Positions 71 through 59,306 of a DNA stretch of 64,000 nucleotides are shown piece by piece. The DNA comes from Acidimicrobiia bacterium (GTDB taxonomy: Bacteria; Actinomycetota; Acidimicrobiia; Spongiisociales; ZC4RG35): the NCBI GenBank assembly GCA_965216495.1, contig OZ244163.1:1194109-1258108 (forward strand). The letters run 5' to 3'. The notes beneath the pieces are model-generated. The model saw nothing but the letters and a program-made list of their open reading frames with translations, did no database searches and was not told where the DNA came from. Positions within the stretch are counted from its first letter, which is position 1; every line of letters begins with the position of its first letter. Position numbers and translations under genes: made by a program.

Positions 71-865
71 TTGGTTCTTTTGGTCCGTCGTCGGCTCCAA
101 CACCCGCTTGATCTCCTCGTCGTGGCGGTGTCAGGAGGGACTGGTTCAGGCAAGTCCTCGTTGGTCAATGCGTTGGTTGGGGATGATCTGGTCCCGACAG
201 GTGGCATAAGGCCCACAAGCACCAACCCAGTCGCGGCCGTGCCCAGAGGGTGGCTAGGGCGGATCAGTTCGTTTCTCGATGCTGCCGGCGTCGATGAGTT
301 AGTGACCTACGAAGGGCCAGATGTCGTGCTCATCGATCTCCCCGACTTCGACAGCATTGAATCGCGGCACCGCGCCATCGTGGACGAGGTGTTGCCTTCG
401 GTTGATCATGTGGTGTGGGTCACTGATCCTGAGAAGTACCGAGATGCCGTGTTGCATAGCGACTATCTCGAGCCTCTCGCGTCGTATCGAGATCATCTGA
501 CTTTCGTCCTGAACCAGGTCGACAGACTGGATATCCAAGACGTCGACCCGGTCCATGAAGACTTCGTTGCTGCGCTTGGGCGATCAGGATTTATCGAACC
601 AAAGACGATGCTCACGTCGGCCGACCCGGTCGCCGGACCACCTATTGGTGTGGAGTCTTTGAGGGATGCCCTTGTCGAGCGGTCGAAAGGGGTCGCAACA
701 ACCTATGCCCGTCTGCTCGAGGACCTTCGTAGCGTCGGATCTCTGATATCCGCAGAGGTACTTGCTGCTCTCACACCAGATGATTCGGCCCTGGCCCGTG
801 CTGCGTTGGCCGAGCTTTCAGTGGCGGTTCAAGAGACGGAGCGACACCTCGTTATTCTCAAGTGA
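71..865 (+). CDS. P-loop GTPase (dynamin/YfjP-like G domain); the frame stays open to the left window edge, so the true 5' end may lie outside the window
   Basis: G1 GGTGSGKSS, G3-like LIDLPDFD and G4 NQVD occur in the right order. No in-frame stop between position 2 and 71. The stop overlaps the next start (GTGA at 862-865). Confidence 0.6.
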   Translation: MVLLVRRRLQHPLDLLVVAVSGGTGSGKSSLVNALVGDDLVPTGGIRPTSTNPVAAVPRGWLGRISSFLDAAGVDELVTYEGPDVVLIDLPDFDSIESRHRAIVDEVLPSVDHVVWVTDPEKYRDAVLHSDYLEPLASYRDHLTFVLNQVDRLDIQDVDPVHEDFVAALGRSGFIEPKTMLTSADPVAGPPIGVESLRDALVERSKGVATTYARLLEDLRSVGSLISAEVLAALTPDDSALARAALAELSVAVQETERHLVILK

Positions 866-1695
866 AGATGATGCTTGCAATCTCAGCGGAGGTCAGGGAC
901 GACCTGATCAGCTCAGCCATAATCCTGTTAGGTGCTCTTCTCGTCTATCTGGCGGCCATGCGCCTCGGACGTCGGTACGTGGAGAAGGCCCAGTCATCGC
1001 CCGGCGAGAGGGGTGCCCGGGTAGCCACCCTGTGGGTCGTCTTACGTCGAGTGATCCTGGTTTTGGTGCTGTTCCTGGCCCTGCTGTTCGTGATGATGGA
1101 TTGGGGATGGTCGATCACGCCGTTTCTGGGTGTGGGTACCGTCGTCGCGGCCGCCATTGGTTTCGGAGCCCAGGACATTGTCAAGGATTTCCTCTCCGGT
1201 TTCTTCATCCTTGTTGAGGATCAATTCCACGTCGGGGATACGGTGACGATCGCTGGCACGACCGGCGAAGTGCGCGATATCCAGTTCCGAGTCACGATCT
1301 TGCGCGACTTCGAGGGAAACGTCCATTACGTACCTAATGGGACCATCCAGGTCACAACAAACTTCACATCCAGATTCGCTCAGCCAGTGATCGATGTTGG
1401 AGTGGCCTATGGAGTGGACGTGAATGCGGCCCTGGCTTCGATGGCCGATGAGTTGCAGCTCATGGCGCGTGATCCCGAGTTCGGGCCCCTGATCACAGAA
1501 GAGCCTGAAGTGCTCGGCGTCAATCAGTTGGGTGACTCCTCAGTGGTGCTCCGTGCTCGTTTGACGACGTTGGCGGATGAGCGTTGGAAGGTTCGACGTG
1601 AGGCGTTGCGGCGAATCAAACTCCGATTCGATGCCGACGGAATAGAGATTCCGTTCCCGCAGCTGACGATCAGCCGGAAGGATGACGACCAGTAA
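862..1695 (+). CDS. mscS: small-conductance mechanosensitive channel (MscS family)
   Basis: N-terminal TM helices are followed by the MscS core GAQDIVKDFLSGFFILVEDQFHVGDTVTIAGTTGEVRDIQFRVTILRDFEGNVHYVPNG. Confidence 0.85.
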   Translation: MKMMLAISAEVRDDLISSAIILLGALLVYLAAMRLGRRYVEKAQSSPGERGARVATLWVVLRRVILVLVLFLALLFVMMDWGWSITPFLGVGTVVAAAIGFGAQDIVKDFLSGFFILVEDQFHVGDTVTIAGTTGEVRDIQFRVTILRDFEGNVHYVPNGTIQVTTNFTSRFAQPVIDVGVAYGVDVNAALASMADELQLMARDPEFGPLITEEPEVLGVNQLGDSSVVLRARLTTLADERWKVRREALRRIKLRFDADGIEIPFPQLTISRKDDDQ

Positions 1696-7131: not shown

Positions 7132-7704
7132 TTAGCCGGTTACTTCGTCTGCGACGTCCGAGATGCCATCCTTGACCTCGTCAACAGCGTCGCCAGCTGC
7201 CTCTTTGGCGTCGTCGATGGCGTCCCCGGCGGCATCAACCGCATCGCCTGCGGCGTCGGCTACATCGGACGCCTTGTCCTGTACGGCGTCGACCTTGTCG
7301 CCTACGGCGTCTTTGACGTCGTCGACCTTGTCGCCTACCGCGTCTACGGCATCACCGGCCGCTTCCTGTACGTCGTCGACCTTGTCGCCTACCGCGTCAG
7401 CCGCGTCACCAGCGGCGTCCTGGACGTCGTCCACTTTGTCCTCCACGGCGTCGGCGGCGCCGGCGGCACCCTCACGTGCCTCCGCGACCTTTTCTTTCGC
7501 CTTTTCGGCGACGCCTGCGGCTGTTTCCTTGGCCTTTTCGACCGCCTTCTCCACTTGCGGCTTGGCTTTCTCAGCCATTTCAGCGGCAGTCTCCTTGGTC
7601 TTTTCGACCGCTTTTTCGACTTGTGGCTTGGCCTTTTCGGCGGCTTCGGCTGCGCTTTCCTTCGCCGTTCCGAACCACGACTTCAACGTGTCCATGAACC
7701 CCAT
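7132..7704 (-). CDS. repeat-built, highly charged LEA-like / CsbD-MT0933-like stress protein (190 aa)
   Basis: ATG at 7704 is preceded by GAAAAGGAA. The longer 7854 start overlaps the upstream nuclease gene. The protein has 2 x 22-aa Lys/Glu repeats (EKAKPQVEKAVEK.KETAA) followed by about five Asp-rich repeats of roughly 18 aa (AAGDAVDAVGDKVDDV..). Confidence 0.6.
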   Translation of the reverse strand: MGFMDTLKSWFGTAKESAAEAAEKAKPQVEKAVEKTKETAAEMAEKAKPQVEKAVEKAKETAAGVAEKAKEKVAEAREGAAGAADAVEDKVDDVQDAAGDAADAVGDKVDDVQEAAGDAVDAVGDKVDDVKDAVGDKVDAVQDKASDVADAAGDAVDAAGDAIDDAKEAAGDAVDEVKDGISDVADEVTG

Positions 7705-11265: not shown

Positions 11266-11688
11266 ATGCCAACCATTTTCACCCGGATCATCGAGGGCGA
11301 GATACCAGGAACCTTCGTCTGGAAGGACGAGCGTTGTGTCGCGTTCATGTCGATCAATCCGCTACGGGAGGGCCACACGCTCGTGGTTCCAAGAGAAGAG
11401 ATCGACCATTGGATCGACTGTTCAGAAGACCTCCGTCAGCACTTGTTCGGCGTGTCTCAAGTCATCGGCGCCGCCCTCCACGATGTGTACCAACCCGAAA
11501 AGGTCGGTCTGATGATTGCCGGCCTGGAAGTACCCCACACCCATGTTCACCTGGTGCCGATTGACGGGGTCAGGGATCTCGACTTTGCCAACGCCGCGTT
11601 GTCGGTGGACAGGGACGATCTGGAGCAGGCCGCGGAGAAGATCCGGTCGGCGTTGAAGTCAGCCGGAGCTACCGGCGTCTCCTCCTAG
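11266..11688 (+). CDS. HIT (histidine triad) family nucleotide hydrolase/transferase
   Basis: MPTIFTRIIEGEIPG...INPLREGHTLVVP and the triad HTHVHLVP are present. Confidence 0.85.
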   Translation: MPTIFTRIIEGEIPGTFVWKDERCVAFMSINPLREGHTLVVPREEIDHWIDCSEDLRQHLFGVSQVIGAALHDVYQPEKVGLMIAGLEVPHTHVHLVPIDGVRDLDFANAALSVDRDDLEQAAEKIRSALKSAGATGVSS

Positions 11689-12128: not shown

Positions 12129-13244
12129 TCAATCTTGGTGCGTGGGCCGCTCGAATTGGTGGACCGCAGCATCAAGGTATGACATCGCTCGGTCGTATCC
12201 CAGAGGAACGACGTGGCGCGTGTAGTGGACGACGCGCCAGGCCCAAAGGCGAAACGCGGCCTCCTCCCATGCGGGGTCCCCCAGGATGAAACCGTCCATA
12301 AGCGAGGGAAAGATTTGGCGCCAAGTCGCGGCATCCATATCGGGCAGGTCTTCGTGATCCAGGCCCAGTGAACGCAACACCAGCGACTCGGCGGCGTCGG
12401 GTGGGGTGGCGATCTCCTCGAGAGTTGCCGACTCGTCGTAGGCGACTGTGTTCCTGAGGTCCGCGGGGGCGGGGACAAGGGGGTCCTTTTCCAAGCGGCC
12501 GCCGTTAGCTGGGCGAGACCTTGAGCGCAGTGAACCAACGGCGTCGAGGCATTCGAGCAGCATTTGGCGTATGTCGGTGAGCGATCCGTAGAGAGCGTGC
12601 CGCTTCCCATCCGGAGCGTTGTGCTCGAATAGGCCTAAGTCCATAGCGGCTGTGGCGTGGGTGATGAGCGTATCGATTCCCCAATCGGACCGCCTCCGAA
12701 CGAACTCATCCTCGGCAAGCGTTGCGACAGCTTCTCTCGAAAGGAGCAGCTCGCCGCCAAGAGGCTGGTGCAGTTCTGCGAGGATGGTGTGAGGAAAGAG
12801 GCGGGCCAGCCCCGGGCGAGTGATCATCCAGGTGATCATTGCGTCGGTGGCTGCTCGGGGAAATCGGTGGCGTACCACACCGAACCCTCGGTCTGCACCC
12901 GCTTCGGCTCCGTCGATCCAGGTCTCGTCGAAGTTCGTGATGTCGGCGTCGTAGAAGTGGGTTCGATCAAATCCTCGTTCGGCCGATCGGTGGAGAGCGG
13001 TGTTCATCCCGTCCCCCTTACCTGACCGATAGCCTCCCAGCCGTTGTTGCGGAAAGACCTCAATGGGTGTTGCGAACTGCGCCTGGATATCTTTGGCCAC
13101 TCCGAGCACGTCGTTCATCGTGGCGCTCTCGGACGACGCAACGGCCCACACTTCGGTGACGCGGGGATGACGCGCCGCCGTCGAGAGATTCGAGGCGATG
13201 ACGTTCAGATCTTCCTTCTTGAACGGGAAGACGACGAGGCTCAT
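12129..13244 (-). CDS. mgs: mannosylglycerate synthase-like GT-A glycosyltransferase (GT78-type)
   Basis: Blocks MSLVVFPFK, AARHPRV.EV, GKGDGMNTAL, HFYDADIT.F, VRH.FPRA.TDAMITWMITR, QPLGGELL and RRRSDWGIDTL match my recollection of the Rhodothermus marinus MGS sequence. This is from memory, not a search. Confidence 0.6.
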   Translation of the reverse strand: MSLVVFPFKKEDLNVIASNLSTAARHPRVTEVWAVASSESATMNDVLGVAKDIQAQFATPIEVFPQQRLGGYRSGKGDGMNTALHRSAERGFDRTHFYDADITNFDETWIDGAEAGADRGFGVVRHRFPRAATDAMITWMITRPGLARLFPHTILAELHQPLGGELLLSREAVATLAEDEFVRRRSDWGIDTLITHATAAMDLGLFEHNAPDGKRHALYGSLTDIRQMLLECLDAVGSLRSRSRPANGGRLEKDPLVPAPADLRNTVAYDESATLEEIATPPDAAESLVLRSLGLDHEDLPDMDAATWRQIFPSLMDGFILGDPAWEEAAFRLWAWRVVHYTRHVVPLGYDRAMSYLDAAVHQFERPTHQD

Positions 13245-13291
13245 CTCAGCAATCCCGAAAGTGTCATGGTCGTTGTCTACTCTCCGGCTCG

Positions 13292-23119: not shown

Positions 23120-25348
23120 GTGAGCATTAAGTTGGATCTGGTGCTGGTAATCGCGGCCGCTGAAGGCGGCGGATCATTCGCCCCGCTCAGTGAGCACGAA
23201 GTCTTGGTGTTCTTGGTCCAGTTGGCCCTACTGATTGGTGTGGCCAGGATCTTCGGTTGGATTCTCAAGTCGATTGGTCAGCCTGCCGTGGTTGGCGAGT
23301 TGTTGGCGGGAATCTTTCTCGGACCCACCATTTTCGGGCGGATAGCGCCGGACACTTTCAATTGGGTCTTTGGTGAAGCCAAGGTGACATCAGTTGTGTT
23401 CGGGATTGCCTGGCTGGGGGTGATTTTCCTCCTGGTTGTCATCGGTTTCGAAACGGACCTCAACATCATCAAGCGGTTCCGGTCGGCCGCGCTCTCAGTG
23501 TCTGCGGGAGCCTTGTTGATCCCGCTGGCGGTAGCGGCCACCCTGGCCTTCTACGTCCCTGAAAGCTTTATAGGCGCCGGACCAAGTGGTGAAGGGGTGG
23601 ACCGAGCTGTCTTCGCTGGATTCCTTGCGTTGGCTCTCTCGGTATCGGCGCTACCGGTCGTGGCGAAGATCCTGCAAGACATGGGTTATCTCCGTCGCAA
23701 CTTCGGCCAGGTCACCCTTGCAGCGGGGATGACCATGGATGCGGTCGGCTGGTTGATTCTGGCTGCCCTCTCCGGGATCGCCCTTGACGGGTTCCGACCC
23801 GATCGGCTTGCCGCTTCTTTTGGCGGCCTGATCGTCTTCCTGATAGCTGGGTTCACGGTGGTCAAGTGGCTGCTCGACCGCCTGTTCAGAGCAGTCATGG
23901 CTTCGGGGTCGTCGATAACAGCCGCCATGTCCATAACGATTGTCGCCGCCTTGATCGGCGGTGCTGTCACCCAAGCCCTGAACATCGAGGCGATTCTCGG
24001 TGCTTACATCGTCGGCATCCTGGTTGCCGGTCTCCGGCATCAATTGCCGCAGGTCAGGTCGATCCTCGAGACGGTCACGGCAGCCTTGTTGGCGCCCGTT
24101 TTCTTTGCCTTCTCAGGCCTGCGGGTCGATCTTGGGTTGCTTGATACCGGAGACGTCTTGATGTGGACTGCGGTCCTGATTGTGGCTGCCATTCTCGCCA
24201 AGATTGTGGGAACAGTTGCCGGAGGATTCTTCGCAGGGGTCAGAGGTCGCGAGGCTCTCGCCCTCGGCTCTGGTCTTTCAGCTCTGGGTGCGATGGGAGT
24301 GGTTGTCGCGATCATCGGACTCAATCTCGGAGTGGTCAGCGAGACCGGATACACGGTGATGGTTTTGGCAGCGGTCGCCACCTCGGTCATTGCGCCTCAG
24401 CTGCTCAAGCTTGTGGTCCGCGGATGGGATATACCCGACGAGGAGGCGCAGCGACTCCGGGCAGAAGAAGTTCGGGAGTCGAGCGAGATTTTGCGCTCCA
24501 AAAGGGTGCTCCTTCCGACGCGAGGTGGCGCCAACAGTCGGTTCGCCAGCCAGCTGATCAGAGCGGTGTTCCCGGACGCCGAGTTGACAGTGCTGGTCGT
24601 CGACATTGCCAAGCCCGGCTTCTTCCGTCAGTTGTTCCGGACGGTTGAGGGTGAGCCAGCTGACACGACAGACGTCATCTCACAAGTTCCCGACGCTCGG
24701 GTGATTCGACGCCTCGCACGAGATCCTGCTGCGGCGATTGCCCGGGAAAGTGCCCTTGGGTATGACCTTGTGGTGCTCGGAGCCACGGAATCCAGTGAAG
24801 GCACCTTCAACAGCGTCATCGATCGGGTTCTTGCCCTCGTAGATGTTGCGACCATCGTGGTGAGACTTCCCGACGGTTCCGGTGCGGATGAACTGCCAGA
24901 GAGAATCCTCGTCCCCGTCGCTGCTACTCGGTCGACCCGCGCGGCCGAAGAGTTCGCCTATTCACTCGCCAAGGCGAACAATGGCCGCGCCTTCGCTTTG
25001 CATGTTGTGAATCGGCCAGAGGGGCAGGGAGTCTTGCGAGAGGACGCCACGGTTGCATCGAGTCTCGCTGCCGGTCAGGAGCTTGTCGGTGCGGCTGCAG
25101 CCTTTGGGGATCGTTTGGGAGTGGCGGTCGAAACAGGAGTGCGTGTCGCTCCAAACGCCGAAGAAGAGATCGTTACCTTCGGTAACAGCGGTGCGTTCGA
25201 TCTGTTGGTAATCGGAGCGAGCACTCGTTCCCTGACCGATCGTCCCTTCTTCGGGCACCGAATTTCCTACATGCTCGAGCAGTCTCATCTGCCGGTGGCC
25301 GTTGTGAGTCTGCCGCCGACGCGGATGCCTCAGGTGCCTGCTCACTAG
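23120..25348 (+). CDS. CPA2-type cation:proton antiporter fused to two C-terminal universal-stress-protein (USP) domains
   Basis: Na+/H+ exchanger-like TM core ([18 protein letters not shown]). The soluble tail has two USP-like halves (VLLPTRGG...VVLGA and [10 protein letters not shown]...LLVIGA). The GTG abuts the ychF stop (TGAGTG). Confidence 0.75.
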
Positions 25349-31166: not shown

Positions 31167-32195
31167 GTGGCCAACTTGCGTCCAGTGATTCTGTCGGGCG
31201 GGTCTGGGACGCGGCTGTGGCCAATCTCATCCCCGGATCTACCCAAACAATTCGTCCCCATTTTCGGTGGGCGATCCTTGTTCGGTCACACCCTCGCGCG
31301 CGTTGGACCTATGCAGGGCGCCGTCGATCCGATCGTTATCTCTGGAGTGGTTCACCAATCTCTCGTGGATGAAGAACTCGCGAGAGCCGATCTAGCTCCT
31401 GCGCAGGTCCTTCTCGAACCGGTGGGCCGGAATACGGCGCCGGCCGTGGTCGCCGCGGCCCTCGTTAGCCACGCTGATGACGTCCTTGTAATACTCCCGT
31501 CAGATCACCTAGTTGCCGATGACCAGGAGTTTCAGTCAGCCCTGCTCAAGGCTGCGGATCTGGCTAAGGCAGGACATGTGGTCACCTTTGGGATTGCTCC
31601 CAATAGGCCGGAGACGGGATATGGATACATTGCCCGGGGTGCCGAGACAGGTTCAGGATTTGCCATCGAATCGTTCGTCGAAAAGCCCCCGTTGGAGATC
31701 GCCAAACAGCTGATAACCACCGCGCGCCACTACTGGAACTCGGGAATGTTCGTGGCGACCGCCACTTCTATCCTTGGCGAGGCGGAGCGATCCTGCCCGG
31801 ATGTTCTCAAGGGGGTGCGGGCAGCCGTGGGGTCCATGAACGGCCGGGTTCTGGGTGAATCGTTCCACGAGGTGGAATCCATCTCGTTCGATCACGCAAT
31901 CATGGAGCACACCTCCGTGGGTGCCCTAGTGGAGCTCGACGCGGGTTGGACTGACCTCGGCTCCTATCGAGCTCTCCTCGAGGCGCTCGATACCGATGAA
32001 AATGGGAACTACACGGATGGAGAGGTGGTCGCGCAACGCGTTAGCGGTAGCTATCTGTCTACCGATGGTGCGACTTTGGCGGTTGCCGACGTCGAGGACA
32101 TGGTGGTGGTAGCCCGAGACGGAGCGGTTCTCGTCGTTCCGATCGACAAGTCTCAGGCAGTCCGCGACATAGTCAGCGAGCTCAACGCGGGATGA
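31167..32195 (+). CDS. manC: mannose-1-phosphate guanylyltransferase (GDP-mannose pyrophosphorylase)
   Basis: The N-terminus RPVILSGGSGTRLWPIS is the family signature. GYGYI and WNSGMFV are also present. The GTG start at 31167 was chosen over the overlapping 31074/31107 starts. Confidence 0.8.
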   Translation: MANLRPVILSGGSGTRLWPISSPDLPKQFVPIFGGRSLFGHTLARVGPMQGAVDPIVISGVVHQSLVDEELARADLAPAQVLLEPVGRNTAPAVVAAALVSHADDVLVILPSDHLVADDQEFQSALLKAADLAKAGHVVTFGIAPNRPETGYGYIARGAETGSGFAIESFVEKPPLEIAKQLITTARHYWNSGMFVATATSILGEAERSCPDVLKGVRAAVGSMNGRVLGESFHEVESISFDHAIMEHTSVGALVELDAGWTDLGSYRALLEALDTDENGNYTDGEVVAQRVSGSYLSTDGATLAVADVEDMVVVARDGAVLVVPIDKSQAVRDIVSELNAG

Positions 32196-37823: not shown

Positions 37824-38291
37824 GTGAAACCTACTGCAGCTCAGACTCAGTTCATCGAAAGGGTTGGTCGCTGGTGGGAGTCGATCACCGGCAGTCGAGT
37901 GGCCGGACAGATCCTCGGGTGGCTGATGATCTGCGACCCTCCCCATCAATCTGCTGCCGAATTGATGGACGCCGTCCACACCAGCGCGGGCTCCATCTCG
38001 ACGCAGACCCGGTTCCTGGAGCAAATGAGCTTGGTTGAACGAATCAGCTTCCGCGGCGATCGCGCCACCTACTACCAACTCAAGGAGAACGCTTGGGAGC
38101 ACATGATGGCCACCGAGATGAACGCAATACGTGAGTGGGACCAACTTGCCATGGCTGCGACAGATTTGGTCCCGGCTGAGCGTCCCGATCGTGTCACGGA
38201 CCTGTCGAAGATGACGAGCTTTCTGCTCGTCAAGTGGCCTGAGGTCATGGTCGAGTTGAGAGAACATATACAGAAGGAGGAATTGGATTGA
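37824..38291 (+). CDS. GbsR/MarR-like winged-helix transcriptional regulator
   Basis: FIERVGRWWESITGSRVAGQILGWLMICDPPHQSAAELMDAVHTSAGSISTQTRFLEQMSLVERI resembles the GbsR-type wHTH. The stop overlaps the next gene's start (TTGA). Confidence 0.6.
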   Translation: MKPTAAQTQFIERVGRWWESITGSRVAGQILGWLMICDPPHQSAAELMDAVHTSAGSISTQTRFLEQMSLVERISFRGDRATYYQLKENAWEHMMATEMNAIREWDQLAMAATDLVPAERPDRVTDLSKMTSFLLVKWPEVMVELREHIQKEELD

Positions 38292-58361: not shown

Positions 58362-59306
58362 GTGGATTCGATCTTTGTGACCCGCAGGCTTCCTGGCGAC
58401 ATCCTTGGTCCCCTCGAGGCGTTCGAGACCACGGTGTGGCCTAACGAAACAGCAGTGCCGCGCTCACAGCTGCTGACTTCCGTGTCGGGAGTTCAGGGAC
58501 TTCTCTGCATGTTTACTGATGCTGTGAACCACGAACTGCTCGAGTCCGCCCCTGAGCTGCGGGTCGTGTCGCAGATGGCGGTTGGTGTCGACAACATCGA
58601 TCTCGAAGAGTGTCACCGCCGTGGAATACGTGTGGGCCACACCCCGGACGTTCTCACTGAAACCACAGCCGACACTGCCTTCGCTCTGCTTGGCGCCGTT
58701 GTACGGAGGCTGCCTGAAGGTGAGAAAGAGGTCAGGGAGGGTTGGCAGCCGTGGACTCCTTTTCATCTGACCGGTGGCGACTTGTACGGGTCGACCTTGG
58801 GTGTCATCGGAATGGGTCGTATCGGGAAGGCCGTGGCACGTCGTGCGACTGGTTTTGACATGAAGGTCGTCTACACGTCGAGGTCGCTAACAGCCCCTCA
58901 TCTCGAGCGGGTCGATCTCGATGAGCTGCTCGTACGGTCGGACTTCGTTGTGATCACGGTTCCGTTGAAGGAGGACACCCGTCATCTCCTGGGGCGGAGC
59001 GAGCTGGCGCTGATGAAGCCCGACGCCTATCTCGTCAACATCTCGCGTGGTGAAGTCATCGACACCGAGGCATTGGTGGGCTGCCTGAGGTCGGGGCACC
59101 TGGCCGGTGTTGGTCTAGATGTGACCGACCCCGAACCGCTCCCACCTGATCATCAGCTGCTTGCCTTTCCCAACTGTCTAGTGGTTCCCCACATCGGAAG
59201 CGCGTCGGTGAGGACGCGCACGAGGATGGCTGAGGTGGCGGTTGAGAACTTATCGCGCGGACTGGTTGGTGATGCCATGCCAGCCGAGATTCTCGGATCT
59301 GGATAA
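58362..59306 (+). CDS. D-isomer-specific 2-hydroxyacid dehydrogenase (glyoxylate/hydroxypyruvate reductase-like)
   Basis: GVIGMGRIGKAVARR, NISRG and PHIGSAS are present. Confidence 0.8.
   Translation: MDSIFVTRRLPGDILGPLEAFETTVWPNETAVPRSQLLTSVSGVQGLLCMFTDAVNHELLESAPELRVVSQMAVGVDNIDLEECHRRGIRVGHTPDVLTETTADTAFALLGAVVRRLPEGEKEVREGWQPWTPFHLTGGDLYGSTLGVIGMGRIGKAVARRATGFDMKVVYTSRSLTAPHLERVDLDELLVRSDFVVITVPLKEDTRHLLGRSELALMKPDAYLVNISRGEVIDTEALVGCLRSGHLAGVGLDVTDPEPLPPDHQLLAFPNCLVVPHIGSASVRTRTRMAEVAVENLSRGLVGDAMPAEILGSG

Follow-up and report, generated by a model that had tools for sequence, protein, structure and literature searches.

We identified, in the 64,000-nucleotide stretch of Acidimicrobiia DNA analysed here (the window), a gene whose product belongs to CAZy family GT78, as shown by its sequence, domain content, fold and ligand-site residues. 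This gene, mgs, very probably encodes a functional retaining GT-A enzyme that, on the evidence of its sequence, would make alpha-mannosylglycerate (MG) as a stress solute and that would have been inherited vertically. In the proposed reaction, the enzyme would move mannose from GDP-mannose onto the 2-OH of D-glycerate in a single metal-dependent step, yielding alpha-mannosylglycerate with no phosphorylated intermediate, and MG would then build up as a cytoplasmic stress solute (salt, drying, heat) beside trehalose. The textbook home of this one-step route is Rhodothermus, red algae and early land plants. The GT78 family is small and globally rare, yet it is a near-core gene of the window's lineage. 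The features of the window that bear on this reading are collected in Table 1.

Table 1. Coordinates of mgs and of the other window features considered in this analysis.
Feature	Position	Strand	Evidence
mgs, GT78 mannosylglycerate synthase homologue, 371 aa	12129..13244	minus	ORF, homology, domains, fold, residues
YdcZ/DUF606-type DMT membrane protein, 146 aa	11685..12125	minus	Pfam DMT_YdcZ 73.7 bits
Divergent mgs/herA spacer, 47 bp	13245..13291	.	sequence
manC, mannose-1-phosphate guanylyltransferase without PMI domain	31167..32195	plus	Pfam and NCBIfam
D-2-hydroxyacid dehydrogenase, nearest glyoxylate reductase/GhrB	58362..59306	plus	Pfam and NCBIfam
MscS	862-1695		domain match
Na+/H+ exchanger fused to Usp domain	23120-25348		domain match
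"GbsR-like" ORF	37824-38291		sub-threshold FUR match only
"LEA-like" repeat protein	7132-7704	minus	sub-threshold apolipoprotein and YtxH-type (amphipathic-repeat) matches only

The open reading frame of mgs is intact and begins with ATG; the plus-strand frame across the same interval contains many stops. Its translation comprises a GT-A catalytic domain (residues 1-240) followed by a helical C-terminal domain, and it contains all six sequence blocks on which the initial annotation had based its proposal of a GT78-type single-step enzyme, namely MSLVVFPFK, GKGDGMNTAL, HFYDADIT, VRHRFPRAATDAMITWMITR, QPLGGELL and RRRSDWGIDTL. When all PDB chains were searched with phmmer, the only ones matched were those of Rhodothermus marinus mannosylglycerate synthase (MGS; 2Y4K, 2Y4J and 2BO4), the top match reaching an E-value of 3.8e-92 and 312.7 bits with residues 1-360 aligned against 1-370 of the R. 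marinus enzyme. Together with an overall identity of 45% to the copy from a Rhodothermus metagenome-assembled genome (MAG), this result shows that the blocks attributed to R. marinus were accurate; the identity to the MAG copy rises to 56% across the GT domain and drops to 25% across the helical C-terminal one. The start codon of mgs is well placed, given that the N-terminus of its product lines up with residue 1 of the Rhodothermus enzyme that was crystallised.

Domain searches gave the same assignment. Pfam recovered MGS_GT (PF21969) over the complete profile with 283.5 bits and MGS_C (PF21967) with 40.7 bits, both against a cut-off of 27, the second match covering profile positions 52-107 of 110 only. 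The GT55 family Osmo_MPGsynth (PF09488) was absent from the Pfam matches of the protein at E-values up to 1, and the sole NCBIfam match was to the GpgS equivalog NF010496, at 23.1 bits against a cut-off of 262. An AlphaFold2 model built from a 40-sequence alignment had a mean pLDDT of 94.3 and a pTM of 0.91, and its best Foldseek match was again R. marinus MGS (2y4j_A; TM 0.93, rmsd 1.7 Å over 375 columns). Chains of this enzyme occupied ranks 1-8 with TM values of 0.89-0.93, followed by GT81 GpgS/MpgS and GT55 MpgS structures with a query-normalised TM of about 0.5 and about 20% identity. The proposal of a GT78-type single-step MGS homologue is thus borne out by the phmmer search of the PDB, Pfam, the modelled fold and the active-site residues described below, with the best matches lying in GT78 and not in GT81, GT55 or GT2.

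We then compared the active site across 89 aligned full-length family members, with columns numbered on the Rhodothermus MAG copy; the numbering of the window protein equals that of R. marinus minus one after residue 88. The window protein has all the listed ligand-site residues, none of which is kept in fewer than 87 of the 89 members and most of which occur in every one, so the metal- and GDP-mannose-binding residues singled out for checking in the initial annotation are all conserved. R130 (R131 in R. marinus, which we take to play a role at the acceptor) is invariant throughout the alignment. The same holds for the metal site, D99-A-D101 plus H216 (D100-x-D102 and H217 in R. marinus), where the comparison of GpgS with MGS in PMC2581804 places Asp102 and His217 at the metal, and for K76, D99 and D191, the counterparts of the Lys76-Asp100-Asp192 network that is described there as touching O3, O4 and O6 of the sugar. 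GDP recognition relies in that comparison on Glu11 for the ribose and Gln66 for the guanine, and these residues are found in 89/89 and 87/89 members, respectively.

The pocket for the sugar and the acceptor is equally well preserved. The PLGGE loop (L162, G163, G164 and E165; the first is L163 in R. marinus numbering) is conserved, and its glycine is argued in PMC2581804 to admit the axial O2 of mannose, with GpgS, which excludes mannose, carrying PLSGE. Also conserved are W188 and M228 (Trp189 and Met229 of MGS, which line the sugar pocket according to the same comparison, PMC2581804) and Y220 in R. marinus numbering. The acceptor residues I137 and T138 lie inside an invariant DAMITWM block and correspond to Ile138 and Thr139, whose main chain and side chain, respectively, bind the glycerate carboxylate in MGS (PMC2581804). 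The sole differences from Rhodothermus near the listed sites (Y86/F87 to R/S and A216/R218 to R/A) are at alignment columns where the family as a whole is variable. Seven positions, all conservative, cleanly tell the window's clade and that of Rhodothermus apart, and no clade-specific substitution was found between these two clades at the listed active-site residues.

The genome that carries the window (2.33 Mb in 2 contigs, 99.7% complete) has a single copy of mgs. GT55 MpgS (PF09488) was not found anywhere in it, in a search that detected the Thermus control, and no genome match to GT81 GpgS/MpgS exceeded 41 bits; the one-step enzyme is therefore the sole recognisable glycosyl-glycerate route in this organism. 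A mannosylglycerate hydrolase of the MGH1 type was likewise not found in the genome. The donor would be made from fructose-6-phosphate by a PGI/PMI-type isomerase, PMM and the window's ManC, and a GDP-mannose supply through these three activities is plausible. The manC gene named in the initial annotation is real and encodes a guanylyltransferase only, with Pfam matches to NTP_transferase and ManC_GMP_beta-helix and an NCBIfam match to GMP_PMI (318 bits) that spans model positions 2-347 of 467; it lies 18 kb from mgs and is unlinked to it. Type I PMI and cupin-type PMI were not found in the genome; a PGI/PMI-family isomerase, whose gene has one of the three PGM/PMM genes about 1.7 kb away, would by inference take the PMI role.

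D-Glycerate would come from the reduction of hydroxypyruvate. The glycerate-type dehydrogenase that had been proposed in the window proved to be real and glyoxylate/hydroxypyruvate-reductase-like, with Pfam matches to 2-Hacid_dh_C and 2-Hacid_dh and NCBIfam matches that fall short of the equivalog cut-offs, to glyoxylate reductase with 318 bits and to GhrB with 240; on this below-cut-off match it is a candidate for the step from hydroxypyruvate to D-glycerate. Its gene stands 45 kb from mgs, also unlinked. A MOFRL glycerate 2-kinase is encoded elsewhere in the genome, which indicates that glycerate is a metabolite in this organism, and, with no classical glycerate kinase found in the genome, the MOFRL enzyme would by inference take that role. 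The genome also encodes OtsA, so trehalose is probably a second solute. In a separate search for ectoine synthase, the genome gave no match and the control genomes were equally silent.

The initial annotation had grouped several window genes with mgs as an osmoadaptation repertoire. Its ManC, dehydrogenase, MscS and Na+/H+ exchanger-Usp members stand as real genes, while the GbsR-like regulator could not be confirmed and it and the LEA-like protein gave sub-threshold matches only. The four real ones are common housekeeping genes located 10-46 kb from mgs and unlinked to it, and the grouping, which is loosely supported, is better taken as a description than as evidence. Family-level support for the function comes from the Desulfohalobiaceae, where a MAG has a GT78 gene flanked on one side by a divergent gene for GT55 MpgS and overlapped on the other by one for glycerate kinase. 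As to the stress involved, Borges et al. reportedly concluded in 2004 that R. marinus uses the single-step route in adapting to heat and not to salt.

Immediately downstream of mgs and on the same strand lies ydcZ, and the junction between the two genes reads TGA-ccc-ATG, which suggests that mgs is probably co-transcribed with this gene for a small membrane protein. The end of ydcZ overlaps a HIT hydrolase gene tail-to-tail. On the other side, beyond the 47-bp spacer, a divergent herA-sbcD-sbcC-nurA block begins, and a regex scan of the spacer in the herA sense found TGTCATGG-N8-TACTCT at 13262-13283; a scan for sigma-70 promoters and terminators around mgs yielded nothing above the shuffled expectation. 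This arrangement is widely kept among the 59 loci of the window's clade (clade A), with herA head-to-head with mgs in 58 of them and genes for HIT, a GSDH-type dehydrogenase and an Atg22-like MFS protein downstream in most. In relatives, the transporter gene that fills the slot right after mgs varies, being of the YdcZ or EamA type or an MFS gene on the opposite strand. In 34 of the 59 loci a ydcZ homologue follows within 1.5 kb on the same strand, and in about 10 it is directly adjacent, a pairing that is recurrent but often broken and that therefore leaves a dedicated transporter unproven. An apparent fusion of mgs in one relative (a stop-to-stop frame of 1032 aa) was rejected, as it proved to be an open antisense stretch across herA.

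One further reading of this locus goes beyond solute synthesis. The mgs-herA control region and YdcZ could form a module for dry survival linked to DNA damage and desiccation, in which the 47 bp would act as a bidirectional control region with a PafBC-type damage promoter motif and YdcZ would be a dedicated carrier of MG or glycerate. If this were true, MG synthesis would be tied to end repair by the herA-sbcD-sbcC-nurA products in an organism where the one-step route is the sole glycosyl-glycerate pathway; we regard the joint claim, with all its parts, as unlikely. The control region common to mgs and the DNA-end repair block and the coupled ydcZ gene are mildly new angles, and unproven ones.

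We next examined how the gene is distributed and inherited. The window protein has matches in at least 979 clusters at 90% identity, the best of them 60-72% identical and nearly all from Acidimicrobiia MAGs, and JGI labels many of these relatives as mannosylglycerate synthase. Among relatives, 20 of the 21 congeneric genomes carry the gene, as do 22 of the 24 from the family. When the class was sampled evenly (401 genomes), a full-length copy turned up in 47, all in the window's order; the window's own family accounted for 35 positives out of 47 genomes (one of them from an unpublished genome that is included in these tallies), and four further families gave 3/3, 5/5, 2/9 and 1/13. An even sample of the phylum was positive in 2 of 401 genomes, one being the window's own and both in its family, and about 370 sampled Actinomycetota from elsewhere in the phylum, beyond the class, yielded no relative. 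At the widest scale, at least 210 of 185,579 species genomes encode a relative, including Rhodothermus, Bipolaricaulota, Desulfohalobiaceae, Pirellulaceae, Caldisericota and one Micromonospora, and among 1.84 billion representatives at 50% identity 99 proteins match at E-values up to 0.001, about a dozen of them near full length. The description of the enzyme as rare in bacteria consequently holds at the global level and fails locally, in the genus and family of the window.

A maximum-likelihood tree of 89 sequences resolved two clades with 99% SH-aLRT each. Clade A has 59 members, which come only from the window's Acidimicrobiia family, and the other clade has 30, comprising Rhodothermus and all the others, with other Acidimicrobiia families included. 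This clade structure, the GC and GC3 of mgs, which are typical of the adjoining genes, and the fixed synteny with herA argue for vertical inheritance and not for recent transfer. As part of the strongly favoured explanation given at the outset, mgs would date back to the ancestor of one Acidimicrobiia family and would have passed down vertically while keeping its position beside herA. In 2012, as PMC3342304 describes it, CAZy GT78 held two entries, from R. marinus and a red alga, with homologues in Selaginella, Physcomitrella and a charophyte. We found no paper on GT78 in Acidimicrobiia, and the literature that joins mannosylglycerate with Acidimicrobiia consisted of incidental co-mentions only.

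Nielsen et al. are said to have reported in 2011 that R. marinus MGS is promiscuous in vitro, using GDP- and UDP-mannose and -glucose as donors and D-lactate and glycolate as acceptors, and PDB entry 2y4j is a lactate complex. Given this promiscuity, sequence alone cannot fix the product in vivo, and the main product could be another glycosyl-hydroxyacid such as glucosylglycerate (GG) or mannosyl-lactate. Glucosylglycerate is common in Actinomycetota, the GT78 enzyme of Selaginella produces MG as well as GG, and, in a genome without GpgS, any GG would have to come from the mgs product. Against this, the conserved, guanine-reading Q66 favours GDP-sugars, and GDP-mannose is the GDP-hexose that this genome can make; moreover, the PLGGE loop that admits an axial O2 is retained, the glycerate-binding T139, I138 and R131 (R. 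marinus numbering) are invariant and the active site shows no clade-specific change, which together make a different main product unlikely. It is very unlikely that MG serves instead as a primer or building block of a larger molecule, either a mannosylglucosylglycerate-type solute or a glycerate-capped polysaccharide, in the way that GG primes mycobacterial MGLP. Mycobacterial GG does have such a dual role according to PMC2581804, and mgs is constantly syntenic with housekeeping genes and does not sit in a stress island, but no other glycosyltransferase or methyltransferase gene adjoins mgs in the window or in the 59 relatives, where its neighbours are transporters, HIT, GSDH and herA.

The recurrence of YdcZ, EamA and MFS transporter genes downstream of mgs in relatives would also suit an enzyme running mainly in reverse, which would convert imported MG and GDP into GDP-mannose and glycerate in a genome where no MG hydrolase was found and a glycerate 2-kinase is available for the glycerate released. 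We consider this direction highly improbable, since neither a sugar ABC importer nor a binding protein is encoded at the mgs locus, YdcZ, a half-size DMT protein, carries the annotation of a putative exporter, its pairing with mgs is often lost in the family and the genome encodes a complete GDP-mannose supply route for synthesis. That the gene is a decaying or silent relic is hardly credible: a genome of the same genus does have the frame broken by two TGA codons, with a split match, and the gene was not found in 12 of the 47 sampled family genomes, but the window frame is intact over its full length with all catalytic residues present, and identities of 50-72% across dozens of species at the same locus point to purifying selection.

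The preferred reading, a vertically inherited enzyme for MG synthesis, would make the one-step MG route a near-core trait in one family of uncultured Acidimicrobiia with small genomes. Because the one-step enzyme is the sole glycosyl-glycerate route in the genome, the clade would be a reasonable place to look for mesophilic MGS enzymes with which to produce MG. A further suggestion is that MG, along with trehalose, may aid stress tolerance in these widespread environmental bacteria.

Among known systems, the closest is R. marinus MGS (GT78; PDB 2BO4, 2BO6-2BO8 and 2Y4J-2Y4M), which has the same two domains, GT-A and helical C-terminal, and shares with the window protein the DAD motif, H217, K76-D100-D192, Q66, E11, T139, PLGGE, W189, M229 and Y220. 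The window protein is shorter (371 aa compared to 397 aa), its C-terminal domain, at 25% identity, is about 10 residues shorter in the region from residue 240 to 300, and it belongs to a separate, well-supported clade of one Acidimicrobiia family. R. marinus also has a two-step MG pathway, which the window's genome lacks, and, unlike in R. marinus, mgs is fixed beside herA in the window's clade and coupled in the window to a YdcZ gene. The plant and algal GT78 enzymes (Selaginella moellendorffii, Physcomitrella and red algae such as Griffithsia) are eukaryotic members of the same CAZy family, and their likeness is by description, PMC3342304 presenting them as highly similar to bacterial MGS.

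More distant are the enzymes of other families that act on related substrates. GT81 GpgS shares with MGS, in the account of PMC2581804, the retaining GT-A fold, the DXD motif, the K-D-E/D network and a carboxylate-binding Thr. Nonetheless, GT81 GpgS/MpgS proteins are only about 20% identical to the window protein, with a TM of up to 0.68 when target-normalised compared to about 0.5 when query-normalised; they use 3-phosphoglycerate as acceptor and need a phosphatase, carry PLSGE in place of PLGGE and are without MGS_C. GT55 MpgS with MpgP, and the fused MgsD of Dehalococcoides mccartyi, make the same MG product from GDP-mannose, as described in PMC8490865. That route, however, belongs to a different GT family, whose PF09488 domain is absent from the window's genome, and takes two steps through mannosyl-3-phosphoglycerate, where the window enzyme would need one.

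The gene encoding the GT78 mannosylglycerate synthase homologue (mgs) and herA stand head to head, and their short spacer contains, read in the herA sense, TGTCATGG-N8-TACTCT, which matches the pattern of actinobacterial RecA-independent (PafBC-type) damage promoters. A strict regular expression recovered this pattern in 15 of 55 spacers of clade A, the 59-member mgs clade that includes the window's copy. The mgs promoter must either overlap this motif or lie within herA. At the other end, the YdcZ gene downstream of mgs (minus strand) converges with a HIT gene (plus strand) and their stop codons share 4 bp (window 11685-11688), an overlap that leaves no space for an intrinsic terminator; the terminator scan around mgs found none.

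Clade A also contains the mgs of 12 MAGs titled 'Acidobacteriota', whose copies nest in the tree among those of Acidimicrobiia and whose herA/YdcZ/HIT/GSDH synteny is identical to that of the Acidimicrobiia MAGs. The taxonomy given by the submitters of these 12 MAGs is probably wrong. In G002, a genome of the same genus as the window's, the mgs frame is disrupted by two in-frame TGA codons (G002:C12:115230-115942) and the profile match is split at position 171/172; this copy is possibly a pseudogene, or else the assembly may be at fault.

Elsewhere in the window's genome (G000), one cluster of 3 genes is likely to serve mannose activation, and one protein encoded in the window itself is a fusion in which the transmembrane domain of a Na+/H+ exchanger is followed by a universal stress protein (Usp) domain at the C-terminus.

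Location of features in the window, its genome and the loci (L) of mgs relatives
Feature	Location	Details
mgs/herA spacer, 47 bp	window 13245-13291	herA-sense motif on the plus strand, 13262-13283
Na+/H+ exchanger-Usp fusion	window 23120-25348	single 742-aa ORF
PGI/PMI-family isomerase, PGM/PMM gene and GT2-like gene	G000:C1:1935468-1938325	one cluster
Clade-A loci titled 'Acidobacteriota'	L025, L027-L029, L033, L034, L037, L038, L045, L053, L059, L066	
Desulfohalobiaceae MAG cluster	L093:4618-8357	GT55 MpgS (-), GT78 MGS (+), overlapping glycerate kinase (+)
914-aa GNAT + CoA-ligase/ATP-grasp gene	L076:2784-5528, L082:3099-5843	divergent from mgs

The Desulfohalobiaceae MAG carries adjoining genes of the one-step and two-step mannosylglycerate routes, together with a glycerate enzyme. 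In other Acidimicrobiia families, whose mgs belongs to clade B, the divergent neighbour encodes a GNAT and CoA-ligase/ATP-grasp protein which resembles Pat-like protein acetyltransferases.
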